Positions 2,165 through 57,433 of a stretch of DNA of 59,323 nucleotides are shown here, piece by piece; position 1 is the first letter of the stretch, and each line of letters begins with the position of its first letter. A model generated the notes under the pieces. It was not told the DNA's origin, did no database searches, and saw only the letters and a program-made list of their open reading frames with translations. The stretch comes from an uncultured Pseudomonadales bacterium (GTDB taxonomy: Bacteria; Patescibacteriota; Microgenomatia; UBA1400; CG1-02-47-37). The position numbers and the translations under genes are program-made. Location: positions 1 through 59,323 of the forward strand of contig CAYICL010000001.1 in NCBI GenBank assembly GCA_964361885.1. The letters run 5' to 3'.

Positions 2165-2773
2165 ATGGAGTTTGACAAATTGGTAGTGTCTTTTTTGGTT
2201 GACGAGGTAGTGGGCGGGTTTTTTGTCAACGTGCCGCCGGGACATGTGGCTTGCATTCATGACTTGGGCCGGGGGGTATTAAAAAAGGTCTGGGGACCGG
2301 GATTACATTTAAAAATTCCTTTCTGGCAACGAGCCAAGCTATTCACCGCCCAGATTCTGGAATACATGATCAGGCATGATTTTGATTTAACTTTATCCGA
2401 AGCCATGGGAGACGAAGCGATTACTTCAAAAACTTCTGACGGCGAATCGATTCAAGTGGAGGGATCGATTTTACTAAAAATCGATAAGGGCCGGGCCAAT
2501 GAGTTATGGGAAAATATCGGGGAAAATTTTATTTCCAAAATTGTCAGACCGGTGGCCAGAAGCAGAATCAGAAGTGTTTTGTCTGAAGTGTCTTTAAACC
2601 AATTAACCACTTACCGGCCTCAGGTGGAAGAAAAGGTGAAGAATGAGCTAAACCAGATTTACTCCAAGATCGGGATTGTTTGCGACCGGTTTTTACTGTC
2701 TGAAATAAAGGATCTGGGAGGGCTGGGCATCAGAGACGATAAGGTGATTTTCTCGGAGAAAAAGACTAAATAA
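2165..2773 (+). CDS. SPFH/band-7 (prohibitin-like) domain protein
   Basis: The block [35 protein letters not shown] resembles the SPFH N-terminal block. SD AAAGAGGAG lies 7 nt upstream, 4 nt after the yidC stop. Confidence 0.7.
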
Positions 2774-5093
2774 AAGCCAGCTTTAAGACTTCGTCGAGGT
2801 GGGAGACAAAATGGAAGCTAATATCTTTTTTAACTTTTTGAGGCACGTCAACCAAGTCTTTTTTATTCCCTAAAGGAAGAATCAGGGTCTTAATCCCCGC
2901 CCGGTGAGCGGCAATGACTTTTTCCTTGACACCACCGATTTCCAAAACTCTACCCCTTAAAGTAATCTCGCCGGTCATCGCCACCTCTCTTTTAACTTTG
3001 GTCTTGGTTAAGGCCGAAATAACAGAAGTGGCCATGGTAATACCGGCCGAGGGGCCGTCTTTGGGTACTGCCCCTTCAGGGATATGGATGTGAATATCAA
3101 ACTGGCGGTAGAAGTTCTGGTTAAGCTTTAATTTTTGCCAACGGGAGCGGGTATAGGAGATAGCGGCCTGGGCTGATTCTTTCATGACATCGCCTAACTG
3201 GCCGGTTAAAATGATCTTGCCTTTCCCGGGGAAAATACTGGTTTCGATAAAGAGAACATCGCCGCCGGCTTCGGTCCAGGCCAAACCGGTGGTTAAACCG
3301 ATCTCGTCTTTTTTTTCTTTTAAAACCGGCAAGAATTTTTCCGGACCAAGGTAATCGGAAAGGTTTTTCAAATTGATCGCAAAAGGACTGCGTTGATGCT
3401 GACAAATTTTCTTGGCCACTTTTCTCATGATTTTACTGATTTCCCGCTCTAAGTTTCTGACGCCGGCTTCCCGGGTATAACTGGTAATGATTTTTTTAAT
3501 CACCGCTAAGGGTAGATGGATTTGGTTTTTAGCCAGGCCGTTGGCAATTAAGGTCTTTTTAATTAAAAACTTTTGGGCAATTTTTTCTTTTTCATCGGCG
3601 GTGTAGCCGGAAAAACGGATGACCTCCAGACGGTCTTTTAGGGCCGGAGGAATGGTGTCCAAAATATTGGCGGTGGTGATAAACATGACCTGAGAGAGAT
3701 CAAAAGGGACTTCCAAATAGTGGTCGGAAAACTCACGGTTTTGCTCAGGATCCAAAGCTTCAAGTAAGGCCGAGGAGGGATCGCCGCGAAAATCAATGCC
3801 GATTTTATCAATTTCATCCAACATAAAGACCGGGTTGTTGGTATTGGCGGTTTTGATAGCTTGAATAATCCGGCCGGGCAGGGCACCGACATAGGTGCGG
3901 CGGTGACCGCGGATCTCGGCTTCATCCCGGATACCGCCTAAAGAAACTCTAACAAATTTCCGCTTTAAAGCCCGGGCGATGGAGCGGCCGATCGAAGTTT
4001 TGCCGACGCCGGGAGGACCGACAAAACAAAGAATGGTCGGACCGGCCGGAGTGGCCAAAGTTGAATGTTTTTTCTTGAGCTGCATCACAGCCAAATATTC
4101 AATGACTCTTTCTTTAACTTCTTTTAAACCATAATGATCGGCTTCCAGGATTTGGGTGGCTTTTTTAATCGTCACCCGGTTAGGAGTGGAAAGACTCCAG
4201 GGCAGATCACAAAGCCAATCCAGGTAAGTTCTAATATAGCCGGACTCGGGGTTGTAAAGATTCATCGAACCTAAGCGTTTTAATTCTTTAACGGCTTTTT
4301 CATGAACGGCCTGAGGCATACGAGCCTGTTTAATTTTGTCTTTGTATTCTTTAATGTCCTTGTCTTCCTCGACATCACCCAATTCTTTTTGAATGGTTTT
4401 AAGGCGTTCTCTTAAAACAGTTTCGCGCATGGATTTATCGAATTTTTTCTGGGTTTTGGTGGCAATACTGCGTTCAATTTCCAAGATCTTTAATTCTTGC
4501 GACAGGCGGTCGGAGACAATTTCCAGGCGTTTTTTAACTTCCAAGGTTTCCAGGAGTTCCTGCTTTTCGGGAGTGGAGATATCCAAATTAGTCGCTACCT
4601 GGTCGGCCAACTCGGACGAAGTGACCCCACCCATAAGGCGCATAAAGACCAAAAAATCGACCGATTTACCGATGTTAACGGCTTTTTTAAAGTTGTTGGT
4701 AATATGCTTTAAAAGGGCGGTAACTTCGTCCGATTCTTCGATAATTTCAGCGATTTCCTGAACTTTGGCGACTAAAAACGGCTCACTGGCGGCTAAGCTG
4801 ACGATTTTAACCCGGGAAACTCCTTTGACTAAAGCATTAATTTCACCGTTGGTTTTTAAGATTCTTTCCACACTGCAAAGGGTGCCGATAGAGTAAATAT
4901 CGTCAAACTTGGGTTCAGGCAAATGAGGATCTTTTTGGGTAACAAACACAATCAATCGGTCAGACCGGAAGGCGGCTTCAACGCCGGCATTGGATTTGGG
5001 CCGGCCAAAAGTCAAAACCGCTTCGGTATGAGGAAAAACGACACCGTCGCGCAAAGGGACTAAAGGAACGGTTTTTTGATAAAGTATGGACAT
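2766..5093 (-). CDS. lon: ATP-dependent Lon protease
   Basis: 775 aa with a Lon N-domain, Walker [10 protein letters not shown], Walker B FMLDEIDK, and the protease Ser context [11 protein letters not shown]. Confidence 0.96.
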
Positions 5094-9636: not shown

Positions 9637-10278
9637 ATGGATTTAAACAAACTTAATGAAAAGTTTTACTTAAAAACCCAAGAGTATTTTAACACTTCCC
9701 GGCAGTTTTACTGGGAAGGCTGGGAAAAACTACTGCCTTACCTGCAAGACCTTCAGGGAGAGACCCTGAAGGTTTTGGACCTGGGTTGCGGCAACGGCCG
9801 CTTCGGCAAGTGGTTAGCCGAGCACAAAACCATTGACTATACTGGCATTGACAATAACCAGTATTTGCTTGATCGTGCCAGGGAATCGCTACCCCAAGCC
9901 AAGTTAATCAACCAGGATATCTTAAAACCCTGGACCATAAAAGATAAGTTTGATTTGGTGGCAATTTTAAGCGTGATGCACCATTTACCCAAAATAAACC
10001 GGGCGCCACTGCTAAAGTGCGCTGCGGCACGCTTGGCGCCGAACGGCATCTTATTTTTAAGCTTTTGGGAGTTTAACCGCTCCCAGGAATCCAAAATAGT
10101 TAAAGACTTGGGTGGTAACGACTATATTTTGGATTGGCACCTCGGCGTTCACGCCAAACGTTATTGCCACCTTTATACTCAAAAAGAAATCAACGAGTTA
10201 ATAAAACCCCTGAAATTAAAACTTCTTGCCAACTTTAGCGCCGACACCAGCAATAGATATTTAATCTTGCTAAAATAA
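9637..10278 (+). CDS. class I SAM-dependent methyltransferase, Trm9-like
   Basis: ATG at 9637 (the tracked ORF starts at an upstream TTG). It has motif I VLDLGCGNGRFG, plus FNTSRQFYWEGW, LSVMHHL, FLSFWEF and DYILDW, in the same order as Trm9/ALKBH8 methyltransferase blocks. This comparison is from memory and unverified. Confidence 0.65.
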   Translation: MDLNKLNEKFYLKTQEYFNTSRQFYWEGWEKLLPYLQDLQGETLKVLDLGCGNGRFGKWLAEHKTIDYTGIDNNQYLLDRARESLPQAKLINQDILKPWTIKDKFDLVAILSVMHHLPKINRAPLLKCAAARLAPNGILFLSFWEFNRSQESKIVKDLGGNDYILDWHLGVHAKRYCHLYTQKEINELIKPLKLKLLANFSADTSNRYLILLK

Positions 10279-12432: not shown

Positions 12433-13568
12433 TAGAGATAATTATACCTCTTATTAATTTTATTCTGGTAAAAAAGAATTATTGGGAAAAGAAGCATAAT
12501 AAAACCGAGAAAGTAAAAAATGTAAGTGGGTTTGGTTTGGAAGGAAAAATTTATCACCAAAAGAGTGAAACTGATAGCGCGGCCGACTGAAAGCACTAAT
12601 TCCCGAGTAATAAAAGCTGTGCGTAAGTTTTTACTGGTATCAACAAAAATCGTTGAAGTCAGATTCCAAAATATCGGAATAAAAAATTGAATAATGCCGG
12701 TAAAGATCAGCCAAAGCACAATATTTTTTAAGGCTAAAGGGAATAAAAAAGTAGTGACTGATAAAATTAAAGTTAAAGGAAATAAAAAGATAGCTCTTTT
12801 TTGCAATTTATCAACAAACTTGCCGAGCGATAGATTAGCGATAACGCTGATGATTGAGAGATATGACAAATAAGCTCCGAAATAAAGCGGAGATTTAATA
12901 AAATAAAGGCTGAAAATTGGAATGATGCCCAAGGCGATTATTTCCCAAAAAGACTGAAGGATAATCAAAATAAAAGTCGGCTTAATTTCTTTAAAGGAGA
13001 TTTGGTATTTAATATTAAAATCGGGTTGATAACGGGTTAGAAAAAAACTGACTGCAAAAAAGACGAAGGAAAAAATCCAAATATATTTATAATCAAAACT
13101 TGCCAGTAAACCGGCCAGTAATGGCGCCAAGATACCGATCAGAGGCGAAAGACTGAAAAGAATAGCTGAAGAAAAACTAGTTCTATGTTTGGGGGTTAAT
13201 TCAAAATGAGAAATATTGTAGGGAATATAAAAAAAGGTTAAAGATAAACCAACAACGGCAAATGAAAGATAAAACTGAAGAGTGCTTTTTATATTAGTAA
13301 TTAACAATAAAAAAGTAATTGAAGTAATTAAAGCCAGCCGCCAAGATTGTTTAACCTTTATGGATTTCATTAATAAGATTAATAAAGCGGCGGCGGAAAA
13401 AAAGATAATATTTGATGTTTGCATTTGAGCGATAGAAAAACCTTCTCTTAAAAAATAGGGGCTTAAAACCGAATTGCTGAATGATTTAAACCAAAGATAA
13501 GAAGCAAAAAAAATCAACAGGTTAAAGAACTGCTGGCGTCTGGGGTTAGAGGTTAATGATTTGGACAT
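12432..13568 (-). CDS. polytopic membrane transporter, MFS-like
   Basis: 378 aa with about 12 predicted TM segments. No diagnostic motif was verified. Confidence 0.5.
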   Translation of the reverse strand: MSKSLTSNPRRQQFFNLLIFFASYLWFKSFSNSVLSPYFLREGFSIAQMQTSNIIFFSAAALLILLMKSIKVKQSWRLALITSITFLLLITNIKSTLQFYLSFAVVGLSLTFFYIPYNISHFELTPKHRTSFSSAILFSLSPLIGILAPLLAGLLASFDYKYIWIFSFVFFAVSFFLTRYQPDFNIKYQISFKEIKPTFILIILQSFWEIIALGIIPIFSLYFIKSPLYFGAYLSYLSIISVIANLSLGKFVDKLQKRAIFLFPLTLILSVTTFLFPLALKNIVLWLIFTGIIQFFIPIFWNLTSTIFVDTSKNLRTAFITRELVLSVGRAISFTLLVINFSFQTKPTYIFYFLGFIMLLFPIILFYQNKINKRYNYL

Positions 13569-14694
13569 TCTGGGATATTTTAACAGCTATTTGATCAAGA
13601 TTAATCGCTGATTCCAACTGCTTGATTTTATCCATATTAGCCTTAGTGGCCGGATGGGTGGAAATTATTGAACAGCAATCTTTGTAAGGTTTATTAGTTT
13701 CACTTTCTAAACCGATTTGCCTGACTAAACTAATAATGTCTTTTTTATCCATGCCGATTAAAGGGCGGAAAACGGGAATTTCAACCGCTTGATCAACGGC
13801 GCAGATATTTTCCATGGTTTGAGAGGCGACTTGACCGAGACTGTCGCCTAAGACTAAAGCCTGATAGCCATATTTTTTAGCCAACTGCTCCCCGACTTTA
13901 ACCATTAAGCGTCTAAAACCCACCAGTTCCTGTTTAACTTGGCTTAGGGGAAGATCTAAGACTTTCATTTGAAAGAAAAGGTAAGAGGCCAGGTATAGTT
14001 TATGGGACAGAGTAAATTGAGACAGTTTATCAATAATAGTTTTGATTTTTGAGTCTAAGACCCGGTTATAGTCCGGAAAAACATGGAAATGCAAAAAGTC
14101 AACTTGAGCACCTCTTTTGGCCAACAGGTAAGAAGCAACAATGGAATCAAAGCCGCCGGAAAGCAAAGATAAGACCTTACCGGCAGAGCCGACCGGCAAA
14201 CCGCCCGGGCCCTGGATTTTGTTAAAGTAAATAAAAGTAAAATCTTTATAACAGGAAAGATAGATAGTTTGAGAGGGATGAGTTAAATCAACCTTGGCTT
14301 TAGCGGCAATTCTGACTGCCTGACCAACCTTAATTGCCAAATCCTGGCTGGTAAAAGGCAAAGTTTTATCAATTCTTTGCGCCTGAACAGCAAAAGTATT
14401 TTTTGAAGATATTTGTTTTTTGGCAATGGTAACAGTCTTAGAAATTATGCTTTTTAGATGACTCGGAGATTCAGCAACCGGAGAAAACCAGGCGATACCA
14501 AAAACTTGTTTAAGTTTGGCTATAGTTTGATTAATTAAATTAGATTTAACTAGTAAAATAATCTGTTTTTGGGACAGAGTAATTTTTTCAGGATTAACCG
14601 ATTGACGAATGTGGTTAATTAATAACCGCTCAAAATCTTTCCGGTTTTTACCCTTAAGACCGATCTCTGCATAACGGATGAGTATTTTGGACAT
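13546..14694 (-). CDS. thiI: tRNA 4-thiouridine synthase ThiI (no rhodanese domain)
   Basis: 382 aa with the N-terminal block IRYAEIGLKGKNR and the PP-loop LLSGGFDS. It ends before any rhodanese domain. Confidence 0.9.
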   Translation of the reverse strand: MSKILIRYAEIGLKGKNRKDFERLLINHIRQSVNPEKITLSQKQIILLVKSNLINQTIAKLKQVFGIAWFSPVAESPSHLKSIISKTVTIAKKQISSKNTFAVQAQRIDKTLPFTSQDLAIKVGQAVRIAAKAKVDLTHPSQTIYLSCYKDFTFIYFNKIQGPGGLPVGSAGKVLSLLSGGFDSIVASYLLAKRGAQVDFLHFHVFPDYNRVLDSKIKTIIDKLSQFTLSHKLYLASYLFFQMKVLDLPLSQVKQELVGFRRLMVKVGEQLAKKYGYQALVLGDSLGQVASQTMENICAVDQAVEIPVFRPLIGMDKKDIISLVRQIGLESETNKPYKDCCSIISTHPATKANMDKIKQLESAINLDQIAVKISQNVQIINL

Positions 14695-27705: not shown

Positions 27706-29380
27706 TCTGTATGTCTTTTATTTTTAACTGCAGGGATTGGTTACCGTTGAAAAAATTTTTTTCCAGAGTATAGGCAATGTCGATAAGCTGACCGGAAGTC
27801 AGCTGATCAGCTAAATGACCAAAGTTAAAAGCAATCGCATCAACCTTCAAGGTCTCTCCCTGTAGGTTGAGTTTGAGGTGTTTTTGGTCCTGGCCGACGG
27901 AACGGAAACTTAATAACTTGACTCCCCTGGTGCAAAAAACCGGCTGGGGGTTGGCAAAGCCAAAAGGTTTAAGTTGGTCCAATTGGTTAAAAAGTTCCCA
28001 GGTAATATCGGATAAGTTAAGCTGGCAGTCAATGGCTAAAGTAGGAGTTAAGGCTTTTTTGGCTAAGGCTTTAGCGGCCAGAGTTTTCAACCTGGTTTGG
28101 ATAGCCGGCAAATTTTTGGTTTCGCTGGTAAAACCGGCAGCCAGTTCATGACCGCCATGTTCCAAAAGCAGGTTTTGTAAACTTCTAATAGCCTTGATAG
28201 CATTAAAGCCTTTGATAGAGCGGACAGAAGCTTTGGCATAATTTTTAGTTAAAGCCACCATAAAGACGGGCCGGTTAAATTCTTCAACCAATCTACCGGC
28301 AACCAAGCCGACAACACCTTCATGAAAAGAGGCATCGGCTAAAAAAATGAGTGGCTGATCTTTGGGTTGGGTTAAGACCATGTTTTTGGCCTTAATAAAC
28401 ATTTCTATGGTAATATCCTGGCGGAGCTGATTAGTTTGGGAAAGATTAGCGGCCAGGCGATGAGCCCGATGTTGATCAGTGGTACAAAGCAAGCGCAAAG
28501 CATCCAGGGCGTGTTCAAGCCTGCCCATGGCGTTTAACCGGGGAGCTAAAACATAACTAACTTGAAAAGCCTCTAAGCTGTCCAGATCAAGACCGGCGGT
28601 TTTGGCTAAGGCAATCAGCCCCGGCCTGGGGGTACGCTTAAGTTTTTCTAAACCAAACTTGGTTAAAGACCGGTTGGCGTTTAACAGCGGCACCATGTCG
28701 GCGATAGTGCCTAAGGCCACCAAGTCTAAAGTAGAACTGGTTTTTAGAACGGCTTGAGCCAAAAACCAGGAGACACCGACACCGGCCAGCTCAAGGGTGT
28801 GAACAATAACCAGGGCTTTGGGGTAAATGGGTTGGTGATTTTTTGTTTTAGGCTGATGATGGTCGGAAATAATCACATCAATGCCGAGTTTGGCAGCATA
28901 AAGGCAACCCTTAAAGGCTGAGATGCCGTTGTCAACAGTAATGATAAGGCTAGGTTTTTGGCCGGCGGCTTTAATAATGAGGTTAATGCCCTGAGGAGAC
29001 AGACCGCGGACAGGTTCGTCACGGGCAGGGATAAAGGGCAAAACCTTGGCTTTGGCCAAGTTTAAGGCTTCCCATAAAACGGCGGTGGCAGTGATGCCGT
29101 CAGTATCATAATCGCCGTAGATGTAGATCAGCTCTTGATCTTTGATCGCCTTTTTTATCCGCCCAGCGGCAGTTTTCAGAGCTGGCAAGTTGAGACCGAC
29201 TGATTGAGGTTTGATGGTTTGAGGTGGTGGCGGAGATAAGAAGAGGCGCCGAAGCTTAGGAGTAGTTAAGTTTCTGTTGGTTAAAAGAGCTTGGATAATT
29301 TGGTGTTGGCGGGATTGGCCGGCGGCAGCAGTAATTTGAGCTTTAACTTTCCAATGAGAGGCCATAACGGCTATAATCAT
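27695..29380 (-). CDS. recJ: single-stranded-DNA-specific exonuclease RecJ
   Basis: DHH family motifs IYGDYDTDGITA, TVDNG and ISDHH, plus DHHA1 GGHELAAG. Confidence 0.9.
   Translation of the reverse strand: MIIAVMASHWKVKAQITAAAGQSRQHQIIQALLTNRNLTTPKLRRLFLSPPPPQTIKPQSVGLNLPALKTAAGRIKKAIKDQELIYIYGDYDTDGITATAVLWEALNLAKAKVLPFIPARDEPVRGLSPQGINLIIKAAGQKPSLIITVDNGISAFKGCLYAAKLGIDVIISDHHQPKTKNHQPIYPKALVIVHTLELAGVGVSWFLAQAVLKTSSTLDLVALGTIADMVPLLNANRSLTKFGLEKLKRTPRPGLIALAKTAGLDLDSLEAFQVSYVLAPRLNAMGRLEHALDALRLLCTTDQHRAHRLAANLSQTNQLRQDITIEMFIKAKNMVLTQPKDQPLIFLADASFHEGVVGLVAGRLVEEFNRPVFMVALTKNYAKASVRSIKGFNAIKAIRSLQNLLLEHGGHELAAGFTSETKNLPAIQTRLKTLAAKALAKKALTPTLAIDCQLNLSDITWELFNQLDQLKPFGFANPQPVFCTRGVKLLSFRSVGQDQKHLKLNLQGETLKVDAIAFNFGHLADQLTSGQLIDIAYTLEKNFFNGNQSLQLKIKDIQIKV
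29373..29378 (+). promoter_or_regulatory. -10 TATAAT, 7 nt from cca ATG (leaderless layout)
   Basis: The sequence reads GGCTATAAT-CATAACAT-ATG. It lies inside the first codons of divergent recJ. Confidence 0.35.
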
Positions 29381-29385
29381 AACAT

Positions 29386-30768
29386 ATGAAGGTGAAGTTG
29401 CCGGTTTTGGTGGTTAAAGTACTGGAGACATTGGAAGCGGCCGGATTTGAAGCTTATGTAGTTGGCGGAGCAGTGAGAGATTTATTGACAAAAACCAAAG
29501 TGGTGGACTGGGATTTTACCACTAATGCCAAACCGGAAGAAATTTTAAAGCTGTTTAAAGAAGCGTTTTACGACAACCGGTTTGGGACAGTGGGAGTGGC
29601 GGAAAAACATTTGGAAGAACAGTTGAAAGCCAAGGGCACATCCGGAGATGTTTATGAAATTACTACTTATAGAACCGAGTCCGAATATACGGATAACAGA
29701 CGGCCGGATAAGGTCTGCTGGGGGAAGAGTTTACTTTGTGATTTGAAGCGGCGGGATTTTACCATTAATGCCATGGCCCTTCGACAAACAAGGGGCAAAC
29801 TGGAAATGGTTGATCCGTTTAAAGGAGAACAGGATTTAAAAGACAAGTTGATCCGAGCCGTGGGTGATAGCAATAAACGCTTTGAAGAAGACGGCTTAAG
29901 AATGATGCGGGCGATCAGAATTGCGGCCCAGTTGGGTTTTACGATTGAAGACAAGACTTTAAAGGCCATCAGCAAAAATGCCAAGTTGATTAAAAATATT
30001 TCCAAAGAAAGGGTCAGAGACGAACTGTTAAAAATCATCGGCTCCAGCTACCCCAAAGACGGAGTGTTGATGCTTTACTCCGGCGGTTTGCTTAAGTTTA
30101 TCCTGCCGGAACTGATAGAAACCCGCGGGGTAAATCAGGCCGGCCATCATACCAAGGATGTCTGGAATCACAGTTTGGATGCTTTGGCAGCCTGTCAGTC
30201 ACCAGATCCGATTATCAGGCTGGCAACTTTACTTCACGATGTCGCCAAACCCAGAGTAAATAAAGACTTAGGGCCGGGCAAAGAAATTACCTTTTACAAT
30301 CATGAGGTGATGGGAGCCAGAATGGTTAAAGAAATCGCCAGACGGCTAAAGATGGCCAATAAGGATGTGGACATGTTATGGTTATTGGTCCGCTGGCATA
30401 TGTTTAGTTATGACCCGAAAATGACGGATAAAGCAGTCAGGCGGTTTATGCGGCGGGTGGGGAAAGAAAACATCGATAAAATGATGATACTAAGGATCGG
30501 GGACCGGATCGGCGGGGGCAGTAAGGCAACTTCATGGCGTTTAAGGGAACTACAGGAAAGAATCAATCAACTAATGTATGCACCCTTTCAAGTCAGCGAT
30601 TTAAAGGTTAATGGCCATGACGTGATGAAAATATTAAATATTAAAAGCGGACCAAAGGTGGGCAAGGTATTAAATCAGCTGTTTGACGAGGTTATGGAAG
30701 ACGCTAAGAAAAACGACCGGGAGTATTTATTAAAACAGATCCGCCTCTATCACACCTCTAAGGTGTGA
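29386..30768 (+). CDS. cca: CCA-adding tRNA nucleotidyltransferase with HD domain
   Basis: Motifs VVGGAVRDLL..DWDF, RRDFTINA and HD (LLHDVAKP, NHEVMG). The last 6-7 codons and the stop lie inside REP copy 1. Confidence 0.85.
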   Translation: MKVKLPVLVVKVLETLEAAGFEAYVVGGAVRDLLTKTKVVDWDFTTNAKPEEILKLFKEAFYDNRFGTVGVAEKHLEEQLKAKGTSGDVYEITTYRTESEYTDNRRPDKVCWGKSLLCDLKRRDFTINAMALRQTRGKLEMVDPFKGEQDLKDKLIRAVGDSNKRFEEDGLRMMRAIRIAAQLGFTIEDKTLKAISKNAKLIKNISKERVRDELLKIIGSSYPKDGVLMLYSGGLLKFILPELIETRGVNQAGHHTKDVWNHSLDALAACQSPDPIIRLATLLHDVAKPRVNKDLGPGKEITFYNHEVMGARMVKEIARRLKMANKDVDMLWLLVRWHMFSYDPKMTDKAVRRFMRRVGKENIDKMMILRIGDRIGGGSKATSWRLRELQERINQLMYAPFQVSDLKVNGHDVMKILNIKSGPKVGKVLNQLFDEVMEDAKKNDREYLLKQIRLYHTSKV

Positions 30769-30769
30769 T
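30749..30769 (+). repeat. REP-like hairpin copy 1 (ATCACACC-TCTAA-GGTGTGAT)
   Basis: Perfect 8-bp stem with a 5-nt loop and 5' flank CTCT. It sits where cca and the RAYT gene converge and overlap. Confidence 0.85.
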
Positions 30770-31430
30770 GTTTGATAATATCTAGTTCTCTTTGAGAGTC
30801 TGCTTGACTGAAAATAAAATCTTCATATGAATCAGCAGTTTTAAAATAACTTAAAATTAAATCCCGGCGGCAATAATTTTTTTGGTCTAATTCTAAATAT
30901 TCCGGTAAAGATGAATAAGGATATTCTTTCAATCCTTTTAATGATTTGACGATGTCGGAACTATAAGGATTAAGATGGATATATCTTGATAAATGAAGTA
31001 ATTGTTCGTCGTTGTCAACGTGAACTGATTTGAATTTACCTTGCAATAGCGGCCCAATTCTATTGTTTTTAACATTAAAATATCGAGTGTAACTGTTGGA
31101 AAATTTACTCAGATAGTTGGATATGCCATTATCAATCAATTGTTTTAACAACAAATGAAAATGATTGGGCATTAAGCAATAAGCAAAAATTTCCACTAAT
31201 AAATGATCTTTTTGGTCATTTAACTTTTTTAGAATTTCCAGCCTGATTGACTGCTGTAATCTTATAAAATAGGAATAACGCAAAAGCGATTTCTTGTTTT
31301 GGTAATACAAAATTGTTTCCAGCGCTCTTTGATAATCCCGTTGATTTAAAAAGATTGACTGTGAAGCAATGCCACGATTAACAATATGATAAATTTCTCC
31401 CGTGATTAAAGGCGTTTCTCTTCCCGGCAT
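30750..31430 (-). mobile_element. Y1 HUH transposase, REP-associated tyrosine transposase (RAYT) / IS200-like TnpA
   Basis: 226 aa with GEIYHIVNRG, the HUH motif MPNHFHLLL, GPLLQGKFKS, and the catalytic Tyr context SRYIHLNPY. Confidence 0.85.
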
Positions 31431-31443
31431 GCTTATTTAGTCT

Positions 31444-31481
31444 ATCACACCTTAGAGGTGTGATGTTTTAGGAGTGTGATG
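31444..31481 (+). repeat. REP-like hairpin copy 2 plus extra half-site
   Basis: ATCACACC-TTAGA-GGTGTGAT at 31444-31464. The loop is the reverse complement of copy 1, and the 5' flank is TCT. An extra GGAGTGTGATG sits at 31471-31481. The hairpin lies 13 nt upstream of the RAYT ATG and overlaps the secF stop. Confidence 0.85.
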
Positions 31482-46808: not shown

Positions 46809-46836
46809 TACCTCTATCACACTCCCGAGGTGTGAT
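46809..46836 (+). repeat. REP-like hairpin copy 3 (TACCTCT-ATCACAC-TCCCGAG-GTGTGAT)
   Basis: The 28-nt string is identical to copy 4. It lies in the 43-nt gap between the miaB start and the CPBP stop. Confidence 0.85.
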
Positions 46837-46846
46837 GAGATGAAAC

Positions 46847-47482
46847 TTAACCCAAACTAATTAGTATCAGGTACATTGAACCGATCAGGGCATGACTAAG
46901 CATTAATGCAAAAATGTTTCTGAATTTAAGAAAGTGTCCAGCCCACCACCAGCCTAAAATTAAACAACTCAAAGTTAAGAGCCAATTATTAAACGGAGTG
47001 TGAATGAGCATAAAAAATATGGCGGTGTAAAGCTTGAGAAAAATCGGTTTGGGAGAAATTAGCTCCAAGCGCGAAATAAGATAGCCGCGGTAAATAAATT
47101 CCTGAAGAGGAGCAGAGACTAAAATATGAATGAGAACCGAAAGGAAGACCGACGGCGTTTTCACTTCTTCAATCAGTAAAGGAATCGTGAACCGGTCATG
47201 GAACCAGTTGAAAACAACAAAAGTGAGTAACAGAGAAAAAACTGTCGGCGGGAGAATGGTTTTTAAGGAACCACACCAATCGTCCGGTTTTAACCCAAGT
47301 TGTTTGGCAGTAATTCTTTGGGTATAAATAATTGAACAAACATAAATCAAACTCGCGATTAAAACAGAAAGGCGCAGATGAATCCAGTCGGGTTTAAACT
47401 GCAACAAGATTAAGGGAAAAACAAGCAAATAACAGGTTTCCATCACTAAAAAAATCCGGCTAGCAAAAACTCGCTTTAACAT
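46847..47482 (-). CDS. CPBP-family intramembrane glutamic endopeptidase (CAAX/Abi-like)
   Basis: Motifs LQEFIYRGYL (ExxxR), FFMLIHTP (FxxxH) and SHALIGS. About 6 TM segments. Confidence 0.75.
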   Translation of the reverse strand: MLKRVFASRIFLVMETCYLLVFPLILLQFKPDWIHLRLSVLIASLIYVCSIIYTQRITAKQLGLKPDDWCGSLKTILPPTVFSLLLTFVVFNWFHDRFTIPLLIEEVKTPSVFLSVLIHILVSAPLQEFIYRGYLISRLELISPKPIFLKLYTAIFFMLIHTPFNNWLLTLSCLILGWWWAGHFLKFRNIFALMLSHALIGSMYLILISLG

Positions 47483-47488
47483 AATAGT

Positions 47489-47494
47489 ATTTTA
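47489..47494 (-). promoter_or_regulatory. -10 TAAAAT, 6 nt from CPBP ATG, abutting REP copy 4
   Basis: The minus strand reads GTGTGATAGAGG-TAAAAT-ACTATT-ATG. Confidence 0.35.
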
Positions 47495-47520
47495 CCTCTA
47501 TCACACTCCCGAGGTGTGAT
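47493..47520 (+). repeat. REP-like hairpin copy 4
   Basis: Identical 28-mer to copy 3 in the same orientation. It contains the stop codon and last codons of 47501..49144. Confidence 0.85.
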
Positions 47521-50709: not shown

Positions 50710-51699
50710 TTAAGACAGATCCCTGCCGGTAAAAACTTCACGAATAATGTCTTCAATAGAACTTTCGGTAATATTTAAGTCAGCCACATGGAACTTGGTT
50801 AAAAGCTTGGCGGCTACCTGATTGGTCAGCTGGCGTTTGACCGAAAAAACCACCCGGGGAGGATTAAAGGATTTGATTTTGGCAGCTTTAATGACACTAA
50901 AGGCCCTTTTTTCGATCGGACCGGAAAAAACCACTTCCAAAATTTTCCGGTCGGCGTGCTTTTTAATAATTTCATCTAACCGGCCGTCGAAAAATATCTG
51001 GCCTTTGTCGATGATAATCACCCGGTCGCAGAGCTCTTTAACGTCATCCATGTAATGGGAAGTAAGAATAATGGTGGCTTTAAACTGTTGGTTGTAGCTG
51101 TTTAAGAAATCGCGGATCTTTTTTTGCATGACCACGTCCAAACCGATAGTGGGTTCGTCCAAAAACAAGACTTTGGGTGAGTGAAGCAAAGCGGCCACCA
51201 GCTCGCATTTCATCCGCTGACCTAGGGACAGTTTTCTGACCTGGACTTTGATGACATCCTTAAGATCAAGCATCTCAACCAGTTGGTTTAAAGCGGCGTC
51301 AAACTGACCGGTGGGGATTTCATAGATTTCTTTGTTTAAAAGAAACGAGTCCAAGGCAGGCAGGTCCCACCATAATTGGTTTTTCTGGCCCATGACTAAA
51401 GAGAACTGTTTTTGAAAAGCGGTTTTGCGGTCAAAAGGAGTAAAGCCCAGAACGCTGACAGCGCCAGAAGTGGGATATAAAAGGCCGGAAAGAACTTTTA
51501 AGGTGGTGGTTTTGCCGGCGCCGTTGGGGCCGATAAAGCCGACCAGCTCCCCTTCGTCAATAGAAAAGCTGATATCGTTAACGGCTTTGACGTCTTCGTA
51601 TTTCCGGTGCAATAAAGATTTAACTGAACCGATTAAACCGGGCTCTTTTTTATAAACCCGGTAATATTTTTTTAAATTAGAAACCGAAATAACGGACAT
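50710..51699 (-). CDS. ABC transporter ATP-binding protein
   Basis: Walker A GPNGAGKTT, signature LSLGQRMK, Walker B VLFLDEPT and H-loop SHYM. Confidence 0.94.
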   Translation of the reverse strand: MSVISVSNLKKYYRVYKKEPGLIGSVKSLLHRKYEDVKAVNDISFSIDEGELVGFIGPNGAGKTTTLKVLSGLLYPTSGAVSVLGFTPFDRKTAFQKQFSLVMGQKNQLWWDLPALDSFLLNKEIYEIPTGQFDAALNQLVEMLDLKDVIKVQVRKLSLGQRMKCELVAALLHSPKVLFLDEPTIGLDVVMQKKIRDFLNSYNQQFKATIILTSHYMDDVKELCDRVIIIDKGQIFFDGRLDEIIKKHADRKILEVVFSGPIEKRAFSVIKAAKIKSFNPPRVVFSVKRQLTNQVAAKLLTKFHVADLNITESSIEDIIREVFTGRDLS

Positions 51700-51751
51700 G
51701 AACTAATTCTATCACGAAAAAAAATTATGGGAGGAAAAAATTCTCGACCCC

Positions 51752-51772
51752 TATCACACCTCGGGAGTGTGA
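51752..51772 (+). repeat. REP-like hairpin copy 5 (ATCACAC-CTCGGGA-GTGTGAT)
   Basis: The 5' flank ACCCCT resembles the ACCTCT of copies 3 and 4, but the loop is the reverse complement. It lies in the 79-nt gap between permease B' and the ATPase gene. Confidence 0.85.
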
Positions 51773-51778
51773 TTACTA

Positions 51779-52564
51779 TTAACTGGAGGCGGAGGAATAA
51801 TGCTTAAGGCTAAATTGCCATGCCCGGTGCGACAGCCAAAGCAAAAAAACGGCGGCAAAAACGCCGTAAACAACCAAGCCTAAAGATAAATGGCCAAATA
51901 AGCTTTTAGCCGGAATGGTCGCCACAAAGGCCAAAGGCATAACATAGGTCAAAAAGAGGCGGAATTTACCGGTGACGTCAATCGGAATCCGGCAAAGCTG
52001 GTGAACCGGCCGAAACAGATGCTGAATGTTGTCTACCCGACCCCACCAAAAAATGGGTAAAAGGCTCATAAACCATAAAGAGTAAGTAATCACTACCGAA
52101 ACAAGAATTAAAATTATGAAAGTGAAAATTTGCAGCCAGGATATTGGCCAAAAGTAACGCTGACATAAATAAATAATTGTCAGCAGCATGGTGAGATTGG
52201 AAAATACCATGGCAAAGGAAAATTGACGCAAAGAAACGACAAACTGGGAATTAACCGGCTTGGTTAAAACCAAGTCCAAATTGCCGGTGTTGACTAAAGT
52301 CACGAAGTTACCAAAATTGATTTCAAAAAAAGAGTCAAAGATCCTGTCAACGAGAAAATAAACGGCGGTTAATAAAAGCATCTTTTCCAAAGTCCAACCA
52401 TTAACTACATCCACATACCGGTAAATAAAGAAAAAAACCATCATGACAATGATCGCCCAAGTGAAAGTAATGGCGTTATTAAGAATAAAGTGGCTTCTGA
52501 ATTCCATCTCCCGGATCAGACAGTTTTTAAAAAAGGCCCAGTAGAGTTTTAAATAACGCTTCAT
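51779..52564 (-). CDS. ABC-2 type transporter permease (B')
   Basis: The ATG at 52564 (MKRYLKLYW..) parallels MNLKRYLIYW of paralog B. The tracked start at 52579 is TTG. Confidence 0.7.
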   Translation of the reverse strand: MKRYLKLYWAFFKNCLIREMEFRSHFILNNAITFTWAIIVMMVFFFIYRYVDVVNGWTLEKMLLLTAVYFLVDRIFDSFFEINFGNFVTLVNTGNLDLVLTKPVNSQFVVSLRQFSFAMVFSNLTMLLTIIYLCQRYFWPISWLQIFTFIILILVSVVITYSLWFMSLLPIFWWGRVDNIQHLFRPVHQLCRIPIDVTGKFRLFLTYVMPLAFVATIPAKSLFGHLSLGLVVYGVFAAVFLLWLSHRAWQFSLKHYSSASS

Positions 52565-52566
52565 AC

Positions 52567-53367
52567 TTAACCGCCGCAAGCGCAGTAATTTTTAATACCG
52601 CGTTTAAGAACCAGGCGATAAAGCCAATAAAAAAAGGTGGCCCAGAAACATGCTAATAATAAGCCCCCGATTAATTCTGAAGTCTGATTGACCCGATTTA
52701 AGATTAAAGACAGGGGAAAGTAAAGCATGTATTTGAAAGGCAGCCAGTTGTTGACTGTCAGCAAAGTTTGAGGCAATAAGTCCAAAGGAATCAGTTCACC
52801 GCTAAAAAGACCGGAAATAATAGTAAAGCTGTTAAATAACCAGCCTGATTCGGTGAACCAAATGGCAGTCAAACCTAAAATCATTTTGATAAAAAAATTA
52901 ATTAAAAAAGCGGCAAATAGACTAACGACAAATAAGCACAAGTTTAAGGCACTAAAAGACAGCCCCTGAAGGGCGGAAGAAAAAAGCCACCATAAAATCA
53001 GAATCGCCGGCAGAAAAAACAACACCCTGACCGTTCTCCAGGAAATAGCGCTGGCAATTTTAAAAACGGCTAAGTTAATGGGTTTAACCAAATAGTTGGA
53101 AAAAACGCCGGTGCGGATTTCGTCGGACAAAATATATTGCGGATGAGTGGCCACCAAACTATTAATCAGCATGACGCCAAAATAATAGAAAACTATTGAA
53201 GCGACAGCGTAGCCGCCGATAGTAAGATGAGTTTTAAAAACGGCTAACCAGAAGAAAAGGGCCACCATGGCCGGGCCAATATCATTTAACATCCAGATAA
53301 AACCGGTGGCCCGGTAAACCAGAGCATCAGATAAAGCCACTTTGTAAAAAGCTAAGAATTTCCTCAT
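52567..53367 (-). CDS. ABC-2 type transporter permease (A')
   Basis: 266 aa with 6 TM segments. A -10 TACAAT (53379-53374) lies 6 nt from the ATG. Confidence 0.7.
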   Translation of the reverse strand: MRKFLAFYKVALSDALVYRATGFIWMLNDIGPAMVALFFWLAVFKTHLTIGGYAVASIVFYYFGVMLINSLVATHPQYILSDEIRTGVFSNYLVKPINLAVFKIASAISWRTVRVLFFLPAILILWWLFSSALQGLSFSALNLCLFVVSLFAAFLINFFIKMILGLTAIWFTESGWLFNSFTIISGLFSGELIPLDLLPQTLLTVNNWLPFKYMLYFPLSLILNRVNQTSELIGGLLLACFWATFFYWLYRLVLKRGIKNYCACGG

Positions 53368-57401: not shown

Positions 57402-57433
57402 TCACATTCCGGGAATGTGATGAATGTGTGATG
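57402..57433 (+). repeat. degenerate REP-like hairpin copy 6 plus half-site
   Basis: TCACATTCC-G-GGAATGTGA is a perfect 19-nt palindrome (57402-57420). It is followed by GAATGTGTGATG, the same hairpin + GTGTGATG layout as copy 2. Confidence 0.6.

Follow-up and report, generated by a model that had tools for sequence, protein, structure and literature searches.

What is the role of a gene for a Y1/HUH tyrosine nuclease that stands between two copies of one short hairpin, in a compact genome of the candidate phyla radiation (CPR)? The question is raised by contig CAYICL010000001.1 (assembly GCA_964361885.1; GTDB lineage Patescibacteriota, Microgenomatia), which was analysed over 59,323 nucleotides, hereafter the window, and comes from the Hainich groundwater metagenome (well H43, 0.1-um fraction). 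A first-pass annotation, made from the sequence alone, had offered two identities for the locus: a REPtron, in which a repetitive extragenic palindromic (REP)-associated tyrosine transposase (RAYT) is accompanied by its cognate repeats, or a minimal IS200-like insertion sequence (IS). We consider that it is a REPtron-like unit, that is, a vertically inherited, single-copy, domesticated RAYT-type Y1/HUH nuclease gene between its cognate palindromic hairpins, and we give this reading a probability of roughly 0.7. It is carried by the architecture of the unit, its conservation among relatives, the covariation of the hairpin stem, the synteny of the gene, and the family and fold to which the protein belongs.

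Architecture of the unit

The gene is an open reading frame (ORF) of 226 codons with the motifs YHIVNRG, NHFHLL and YIHLNPY, and the same perfect hairpin lies on both sides of it, ATCACACCTCTAAGGTGTGAT at 30749–30769 and ATCACACCTTAGAGGTGTGAT at 31444–31464; in these respects the first-pass annotation is confirmed. Each hairpin has 21 nt, with a perfect 9-bp stem and a 3-nt loop, and folds as single-stranded DNA (ssDNA) with -8.2 kcal/mol (z about -5.6). The two are exact reverse complements of one another, the orientation of the left flank being unchanged, and the whole hairpin–gene–hairpin unit measures 716 nt. Its features are as follows.

30750..31430, minus strand: Y1/HUH tyrosine nuclease of RAYT type, TnpAY1 subclass 2.1-like (from Pfam, alignments, an AlphaFold2 (AF2) model and a fold match)
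30749..30769, unstranded: downstream hairpin, ATCACACCT-CTA-AGGTGTGAT, overlapping the last 20 nt of the RAYT ORF, stop codon included
31444..31464, unstranded: upstream hairpin, ATCACACCT-TAG-AGGTGTGAT, ending 13 nt before the RAYT ATG
30742..30748, plus strand: 5' tag CGCCTCT at the hairpin foot, its CT immediately abutting the palindrome
31439..31444, minus strand: putative extended -10 box TAGACT, inferred, with TGA before it, 8 nt ahead of the RAYT ATG and partly formed by the hairpin foot
31469..31481, unstranded: extra right-arm half-site GAGTGTGATGTTT, a tandem duplicate of arm and flank inside the 3' end of the SecF ORF

Both hairpins are built into the ends of genes. The one at 30749 has a TGA in each arm, which serve as the stop codons of the RAYT ORF (minus strand) and of the convergent ORF for the CCA-adding enzyme (plus strand), and an orthologous hairpin is found at the same CCA/RAYT junction in the related loci L003, L025 and L030; at 31444, the SecF ORF terminates at a TAA in the hairpin loop. 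The C-terminal residues encoded by the downstream hairpin, KHHTLEV (30750–30770), still obey the C-terminal pattern of the family, IKHLxLE. The hairpin lies 24–37 nt past the RAYT stop in Levybacteria and Woesebacteria. Arm duplications like the half-site at 31469–31481 are also seen in L033 and L038.

The protein

Annotated members of the family are called just 'transposase' or 'hypothetical'. In line with one of the two identities offered by the first-pass annotation, the protein is a RAYT-type Y1/HUH enzyme, and not an IS200 transposase. It matches Pfam Y1_Tnp (PF01797) above the curated cutoff (34 bits vs 23). In family alignments of 23 and 34 sequences the HUH pair H90 and H92 (within NHFH), the putative catalytic tyrosine Y150 (within YIHLNP) and the adjoining N154 and P155 do not vary; MPNHFHLL, GPLFQGKFK and RYIHLNPY stand in the family consensus, and lengths range from 224 to 240 residues. 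In a profile search of the PDB the top match is Escherichia coli TnpAREP (4ER8), which spans both catalytic motifs and comes ahead of ISDra2 TnpA; a profile was needed for this, a single-sequence phmmer search against the PDB giving no match at E<=1. The AF2 model (pLDDT 89.5) likewise has 4ER8 as its best fold match (E 9e-07, target TM 0.70), with the transposases of IS200, IS608 and ISDra2 ranked behind it at E of about 1e-3, and it also matches 2F4F, 2XQC and 2A6M. Residues 164–225 of the model form a helical C-terminal region; a Pfam search of the C-terminal 70 residues for helix–turn–helix (HTH) or DnaA_C domains (Bac_DnaA_C, HTH_23, HTH_28) returned nothing meaningful, even at E<=10.

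IS200 transposases are characterized by Y---Q and a length of about 150 residues, and class 2, the RAYT class, by Y---NP (PMC6006769). The motif found here, YIHLNP, is of the Y---NP form and not of the Y---Q form, and NHFH, FQ/LQ and YIHLNP together with a length of about 226 residues agree with the second motif set of subclass 2.1 (PMC6006769, Table 1). By these motifs we assign the protein as TnpAY1 subclass 2.1-like, which corresponds to group 1 of Bertels and largely to the TIRYT proteins.

The first-pass annotation expected such a gene to be unusual in a reduced genome of Patescibacteria type. Instead, the family is very common in Microgenomates: there are more than 7900 close matches among clusters formed at 90% identity, and 412 clusters at 50% identity (E<=1e-30). 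Among the named relatives, Beckwithbacteria are the closest. A tblastn search against plasmids yielded distant relatives only (25–42% identity), which are of no use for a test of the flanks. A literature search found neither a description of the family nor a paper that links RAYT, REP or IS200-type Y1 proteins with Patescibacteria; one preprint just mentions a match to KEGG K07491 in an archaeon.

Association of the gene with its hairpins

One genome per GTDB species was scanned with the pattern CTATCACACYYNNNRRGTGTGAT, which gave 41 loci, mostly from metagenome-assembled genomes (MAGs) of Beckwithbacteria, Daviesbacteria, WWE3 and other Patescibacteria, with a few MAGs that carry the label Gammaproteobacteria, Pseudomonadales or Omnitrophota; the set scanned does not include the source genome of the window. 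RAYT homologs number six in these loci (42–63% identity), and two hairpins bracket every one of them. Because these loci had been chosen through the hairpin, the test was repeated on 80 metagenome loci chosen by the protein alone (35–61% identity), 69 of them with enough flanking sequence. The upstream and downstream flanks share a word of at least 12 nt (median 16) in 56 of the 69, compared with 3 of 180 shifted controls, so that the association suspected from the window alone extends to related genomes. The shared words are perfect palindromes and are lineage-specific (TTCCACCTCTAAGGTGGAA, TACACCTCCGAGGTGTA, TTCAACACCGGGTGTTGAA, AACGATCCGGTATCGTT, GCTACCCTCAGGGTAGC, TTGCACACTTCCGAAGTGTGCAA), a CACC...GGTG core being common among them. 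In the protein-selected loci the usual distance from the end of the upstream hairpin to the ATG is about 40–45 nt, with a TTGACA box immediately after the hairpin; on the other side of the gene, 10–60 nt separate the stop from the start of the downstream hairpin.

There is evidence that the stem is maintained as such. In the ATCACAC family, with 75 copies, pairing holds in 97.5% of stem cells, and shuffled and slid controls are all lower; two inner stem pairs, the sequence of which is not fixed by the search pattern, switch between C-G, U-A and A-U in a compensatory manner. The inner stem at the two orthologous junctions, CCA/RAYT and RAYT/SecF, is CCTCTAAGG in the window, ACACCGGGTGT in L003 and ACACCCGGTGT in L044, the two flanks agreeing within each genome and the solo copy of L044 agreeing with them. 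The variant at the RAYT flanks is also the variant on other contigs of the same MAG in JBDRQW01, CAXBYZ01, PCQY01 and CAZXEC01. This is concerted evolution of a hairpin repeat family with its gene, as has been described for REP–RAYT pairs. A separate arrangement occurs in JAFGFL01, a MAG labelled Omnitrophota, where the ATCACAC...GTGTGAT hairpin forms close inverted, REPIN-like doublets 5–18 nt apart (L017 1864–1923, L028 3661–3707, L034 801–847).

Vertical inheritance

The order RecJ–CCA–RAYT–SecF–SecD is found in five genomes of Beckwithbacteria, namely in the window, in L003 (the complete genome CP011210.1) and in L025, L030 and L044. Across these five genomes the RAYT proteins are 59–63% identical and their neighbours 57–74%; thus the gene has remained at one locus and has diverged at a pace close to that of housekeeping genes. 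The results on copy number and dispersal cover the window, the MAG loci and contigs. There is one family member in the window. Two occur in one locus in L081, L121, L125 and L126, with a mutual identity of only 35–54%. No tnpB-like ORF stands next to the gene in the window or in those loci of relatives that were looked at. The gene is therefore vertically inherited, single-copy and domesticated rather than a hopping IS, and this vertically kept, low-copy behaviour fits that of domesticated RAYTs (PMC5581495). Genes for TnpAY1 proteins outside IS elements have been found mainly in larger genomes (Quentin 2018, PMC6006769); set against that trend, the related complete genomes of just 0.8–1 Mb or so suggest that the gene is kept for a function at the level of the host and not as a parasite. 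Two complete genomes with the gene are CP011210.1 (Beckwithbacteria, 1.05 Mb) and CP066685.1 (Levybacteria, 0.76 Mb). The two members in L081 (7437–8075 and 10967–11593) are 45% identical, lie 3 kb apart and carry separate hairpin variants, CACCTTAAAGGTG for one and CACCTGGAAGGTG for the other.

Further copies of the hairpin

The first-pass annotation was also correct that solo copies occur elsewhere in the window.

46816..46836, unstranded: solo hairpin ATCACACTCCCGAGGTGTGAT, at the junction of the CPBP-family gene with miaB; AGAGGT-N6-ATG, with the start of miaB, comes next on the minus strand
47500..47520, unstranded: solo hairpin of the same sequence, between the gene for a 547-residue membrane protein and the CPBP-family gene
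51753..51773, unstranded: solo hairpin ATCACACCTCGGGAGTGTGAT, the reverse complement of the preceding two, between ABC-2 permease and ABC ATPase genes
about 57402..57432, unstranded: degenerate relative TCACATTCCGGGAATGTGA followed by a GTGTGAT half-site, intergenic

Each of the copies at 46816, 47500 and 51753 has one mismatch to the pattern. The five matches in the window compare with 0.01 expected, and none of 100 shuffles reached five, which bears out the enrichment beyond chance for the window; all five are at gene boundaries, for which the chance is about 2e-5 in a window that is 92.6% coding. A 5' extension, CTATCACAC, is common to the five (0.11 expected), with CT directly 5' of the hairpin on the plus strand; over the 75 copies the flank consensus is TACCTCT, the anchor matches having been selected to carry the CT. 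Dispersal is on a modest scale, at roughly one solo copy in 20–50 kb overall. There is about one solo copy per 15–20 kb in loci of Beckwithbacteria, and four MAGs have about 5–9 matches each to the strict pattern.

Many ORFs end at the TGA of the distal hairpin arm, that of the 547-residue membrane protein having its stop inside the 47500 hairpin, and AGAGGT-N4-6-ATG follows at least 14 hairpin copies. Rfam at its gathering thresholds has no family for the hairpin, the single match in the window being one tRNA, and a terminator scan of the window found none; the hairpins have no T-tract.

Comparison with the close relative L129 (75–83% nucleotide identity) shows what else may lie at such junctions. 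Where the window has the 51753 hairpin (51740–51786), L129 carries a 620-nt module (2679–3297) of two genes, of 84 and 86 residues, which are toxin–antitoxin-like by size and arrangement. The identical hairpins at 46816 and 47500 bracket a gene for a 211-residue CPBP/Rce1-like membrane protein (46816–47520). In L129, L130 and L131 this gene and its upstream neighbour overlap by 4 nt, with no hairpin (L129 5880–6700), and the CPBP protein of a relative with the overlap is 95% identical to that of the window. The 47500 junction of the window has a hairpin, AGAGG and a new TAAAAT box in place of the overlap, and synteny with L129 stops at the 46816 hairpin. At the RAYT gene itself, the downstream hairpin and the CCA gene abut in the window, L003 and L025; a 194-residue ORF is inserted between them in L030 (about 3000–4340), and an HTH_3/Gp49 pair in L044 (10690–11420).

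Comparison with known systems

By its motifs the system most resembles TIRYT/TIRtron, which equates to TnpAY1 subclass 2.1 and to RAYT group 1 of Bertels (PMC3733652, PMC6006769, PMC5581495). NH[YF]H, FQ and Y[IV]HLNP are held in common, TIRYTs have a median length of 238 residues, and copy number is low in both. Terminal inverted repeats (TIRs), some of them self-complementary, have been reported around TIRYT genes (Di Nocera 2013, PMC3733652), and in the TIRtron, as here, related inverted or self-complementary sequences flank the gene on both sides at fixed distances and give rise to few repeats. The TIR motif GGGGWSAS is approached by arms such as GGGTGAC (L107) and GGGGTGT (L053), most flanks having no exact match. 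However, each flank in the present unit is a complete perfect palindrome and not one arm of a terminal inverted repeat, the C-terminal part of the protein has none of the HTH or DnaA_C-like Pfam domains of TIRYTs at a detectable level, and the hosts are Patescibacteria, which lie outside those surveys.

The hairpin itself resembles in form that of the group 3 REPtron of Stenotrophomonas maltophilia (TnpASm/REPSm, PMC8266576). REPSm is also a short perfect hairpin, of 8 bp with a 3-nt loop against 9 bp with 3 nt, and the gene stands between its REPs; TnpASm cuts at a CT adjacent to the hairpin, and in each of the five copies of the window the foot is directly adjoined by CT. In contrast to the window hairpin, REPSm has a GTAG tag and a very high copy number, and TnpASm belongs to subclass 2.5 (DH[LF]H, YI[VI]ANP, about 150 residues). 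The E. coli REPtron (TnpAREP/yafM with REP/BIME; 4ER8; PMC3333891, PMC3479197) is likewise a single-copy, vertically inherited Y1 nuclease with Y...NP and cognate hairpin flanks, but identity is only about 17%, TnpAREP has 165 residues and lacks the 70-residue helical C-terminal extension, and the E. coli REPs are longer, bulged, GTAG-tagged and present at about 600 per genome. With IS200/IS605 elements (IS200, IS608, ISDra2) the unit shares the Y1/HUH core, subterminal hairpins on both sides of tnpA and, presumably, single-strand chemistry; Y...Q, a length of about 150 residues, distinct left and right ends, guide and target tetranucleotides, many near-identical copies, horizontal spread and an often associated tnpB belong to those elements only.

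Weighing the explanations

Several results count against a REPtron-like identity. A GT[AG]G tag is found neither at the hairpin feet of the window (...CCTCT) nor in the flanks of the wider family, where the CT tag is not general either (15 of 36 downstream hairpins have a CT at a distance of up to 5 nt). The sole NCBIfam match, to the equivalog REP_Tyr_transpos (NF047646), falls below its cutoff (49.8 bits vs 80). For subclass 2.1, neither an automatic nor a manual search found REP-like sequences (PMC6006769). The solo copies of the window are imperfect and have a different centre (TCCCGAG), and so are not identical to the flanking pair; they are chimeras, with ...CACTC as the left arm and AGGTG... 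as the right, of which a perfect version, ATCACACTCCTGGAGTGTGAT, is present in another genome. The protein-selected loci contain just 7–8 solo copies in 350–436 kb, most having none within 10 kb; the hairpin has thus proliferated weakly, and its chief role could be in the service of the RAYT gene itself. Thus the REP/RAYT behaviour seen by the first-pass annotation stands as regards bracketing and the existence of solo copies, but the unit is not a canonical REP/RAYT system: in addition to its missing tag, low NCBIfam score and modest dispersal, its motifs are those of group 1 and not of the REP-associated groups 2 and 3.

An autonomous minimal IS of the IS200 type, the 716-nt unit of which would excise and insert as a single-stranded circle, would also have a hairpin–gene–hairpin layout and a Y1_Tnp domain, and the four loci with two family members, together with the highest duplication rate among RAYT groups being that of group 1 (PMC5581495), might be taken to indicate mobility. 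We nevertheless regard this identity as highly improbable, and the 'minimal IS200-like unit' of the first-pass annotation as set aside, since the gene keeps one chromosomal position in five genomes with the divergence of its housekeeping neighbours, has a single copy in the window and paralogs that are never near-identical, ends its Y-motif in NP and not Q, encodes 226 and not about 150 residues, has the same palindrome at both ends and no tnpB, and is placed with TnpAREP by fold and profile searches alike. It is also conceivable, if unlikely, that the hairpins are host punctuation or regulatory elements independent of the Y1 protein, which would then be a domesticated DNA-binding regulator or unrelated; stabilizers of mRNA 3'-ends, intercistronic structures and operators beside promoters or ribosome-binding sites are candidate roles. 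The location of every copy at a gene boundary would fit this, as would the stop codons in the distal arms, the start signal that follows at least 14 copies, the likeness of the arms CACCTC/GAGGTG to an anti-Shine–Dalgarno/Shine–Dalgarno (SD) pair, the fixed spacing of the upstream hairpin against the adjoining TTGACA box of the RAYT promoter, and the small number of solo copies. Yet the hairpin sequence follows the RAYT lineage, with both flanks present in about 80% of the unbiased loci, and is homogenized within a genome while being replaced between close relatives; an invariant HUH and tyrosine across the family argue for retained nuclease chemistry; and neither terminators nor a frequent use of SD sequences (10 of 64 genes) was seen.

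The hairpins might, alternatively, be recombination sites that delimit gene cassettes, the nuclease acting in trans on pairs of them, or the sites being hot spots of gene gain and loss. What speaks for this is that hairpin pairs bracket single non-RAYT genes or a gene pair in the window (46816/47500, CPBP) and in L007, L029, L039 (a PIN/AbrB pair) and L119, that all three solo copies in the window coincide with structural differences from L129, and that accessory genes have been inserted by the RAYT downstream hairpin in L030 and L044. The numbers are small, however, and the comparisons yielded no clean pair of filled and empty sites around an intact cassette. At 47500 the junction shows replacement rather than a clean insertion, one of the four differences between the window and L129 has no hairpin, the CPBP-family gene has the same upstream neighbour in L129 and L133, and chance alone would not make adjacent hairpin-bearing junctions improbable (about 0.1 for the window). 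We think it improbable that the sites define cassettes or are such hot spots. Equally doubtful is the broader proposition that gene boundaries in streamlined Patescibacteria are edited by a system made up of the RAYT-like nuclease and its hairpins. The hairpins bring their own stop codons and start signals, and so would fit near-zero intergenic space. Were that proposition true, they would mark the junctions at which accessory genes such as toxin–antitoxin pairs and the CPBP-family gene come, go and swap; hairpin pairs would be the ends of cassettes moved in trans by a single-copy nuclease; and a 'domesticated' subclass 2.1 enzyme would drive the flux of gene content in CPR genomes.

A possible mechanism

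For the REPtron-like unit that we favour, binding, cleavage, the cleavage site and a single-stranded substrate are inferred by analogy. In groups 2 and 3, the RAYT binds the REP as folded in ssDNA and cleaves at a CT on the 5' or 3' side of the hairpin; strand transfer can resolve the tyrosine-5'-phosphate intermediate that results (PMC8266576). If its homologs TnpAREP and IS608 TnpA are taken as models, the present protein would bind its hairpin when this is folded in ssDNA, for example in the lagging-strand template. The cut would adjoin the foot of the stem, the likely site in this lineage being at or near the conserved 5' ...CT; H90 and H92 would hold the metal, Y150 would make the 5'-phosphotyrosine link, and the strands would be rejoined afterwards. 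RAYT-like cleavage chemistry appears most likely because of the invariant HUH and tyrosine, the TnpAREP-like fold, the covariation of the hairpin and the CT at the foot of the window copies. Occasional strand transfer could then copy or replace hairpins, such that flanks and dispersed copies would be alike in each genome while drifting between genomes, and could also seed solo copies in the tiny intergenic gaps of a compact genome. Autoregulation is a further possibility, through the upstream hairpin that lies against the gene's own promoter.

Significance

In ultra-small groundwater bacteria, a large protein family has the hairpin–gene–hairpin layout as its norm, and this extends the known REPtron/TIRtron kind; REPtron-like systems are thereby extended to Patescibacteria. 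New elements are the pairing of a subclass 2.1-like enzyme with a complete, perfect palindrome on either side of its gene, the lack of a GTAG tag, the low dispersal, the CPR hosts, and the provision by the hairpins of stop codons, and by some copies of start signals too, at the gene boundaries of a compact genome. Subclass 2.1 (group 1) is the largest RAYT group, with no cognate REP identified so far, and the hairpin provides a concrete candidate substrate for it in the CPR branch, in the form of a 21-nt oligonucleotide and a 226-residue protein. If it is confirmed that hairpins coincide with synteny breaks between close relatives, this would indicate a way in which the gene content of these organisms changes.

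Start signals and minor observations

A TAnnnT-N6-8-ATG arrangement like that of the putative RAYT -10 box precedes many genes of the window, with examples such as TATAAT-8-ATG and TGATAGAAT-6-ATG (starts at 29386, 1390 and 10283 on the plus strand and of 50710..51699, 13546..14694 and 52567..53367 on the minus strand), whereas an SD-like 4-mer lies upstream of only 10 of the 64 predicted genes; this suggests that leaderless transcripts dominate in the host organism. A simple sigma-70 scan of the window did not call the RAYT promoter. Two interpretations of the hairpin flank were tried. That foot and flank, TGTGATAGAGGT, make a general outward extended -10 promoter was rejected, as the last base of the hexamer is G in most copies and only the RAYT copy (TAGACT) fits. 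That the left flank CCTCT is the mere reverse complement of an SD sequence was rejected in part, given the SD count above and the many starts that look leaderless, although AGAGGT-N4-6-ATG does recur. CACCT(C)...(G)AGGTG, the core in which the hairpin is best conserved (30753–30765 and 31448–31460; L045, L046, L010), resembles an anti-SD/SD pair, and the left arm ATCACACCTCC is close to what we take to be the 3' tail of the 16S rRNA, GATCACCTCC; the likeness may be a coincidence.

GC skew on the plus strand is positive along the whole window (0.04–0.15), though the minus strand carries most genes at 30–56 kb. The 5' tags of the five hairpins all lie on the plus strand, which together with the skew is compatible with a bias towards the lagging-strand template, too weakly for any use to be made of it. 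Finally, a 26-nt palindrome, ACCTTCAGGGAGAGACCCTGAAGGTT, and a 92% complementary relative (9749–9774 and 27842–27867) lie within two different ORFs, one of which is RecJ, where the stretch encodes ...LQGETLKV...; the pair could be a second small repeat, or a coincidence.

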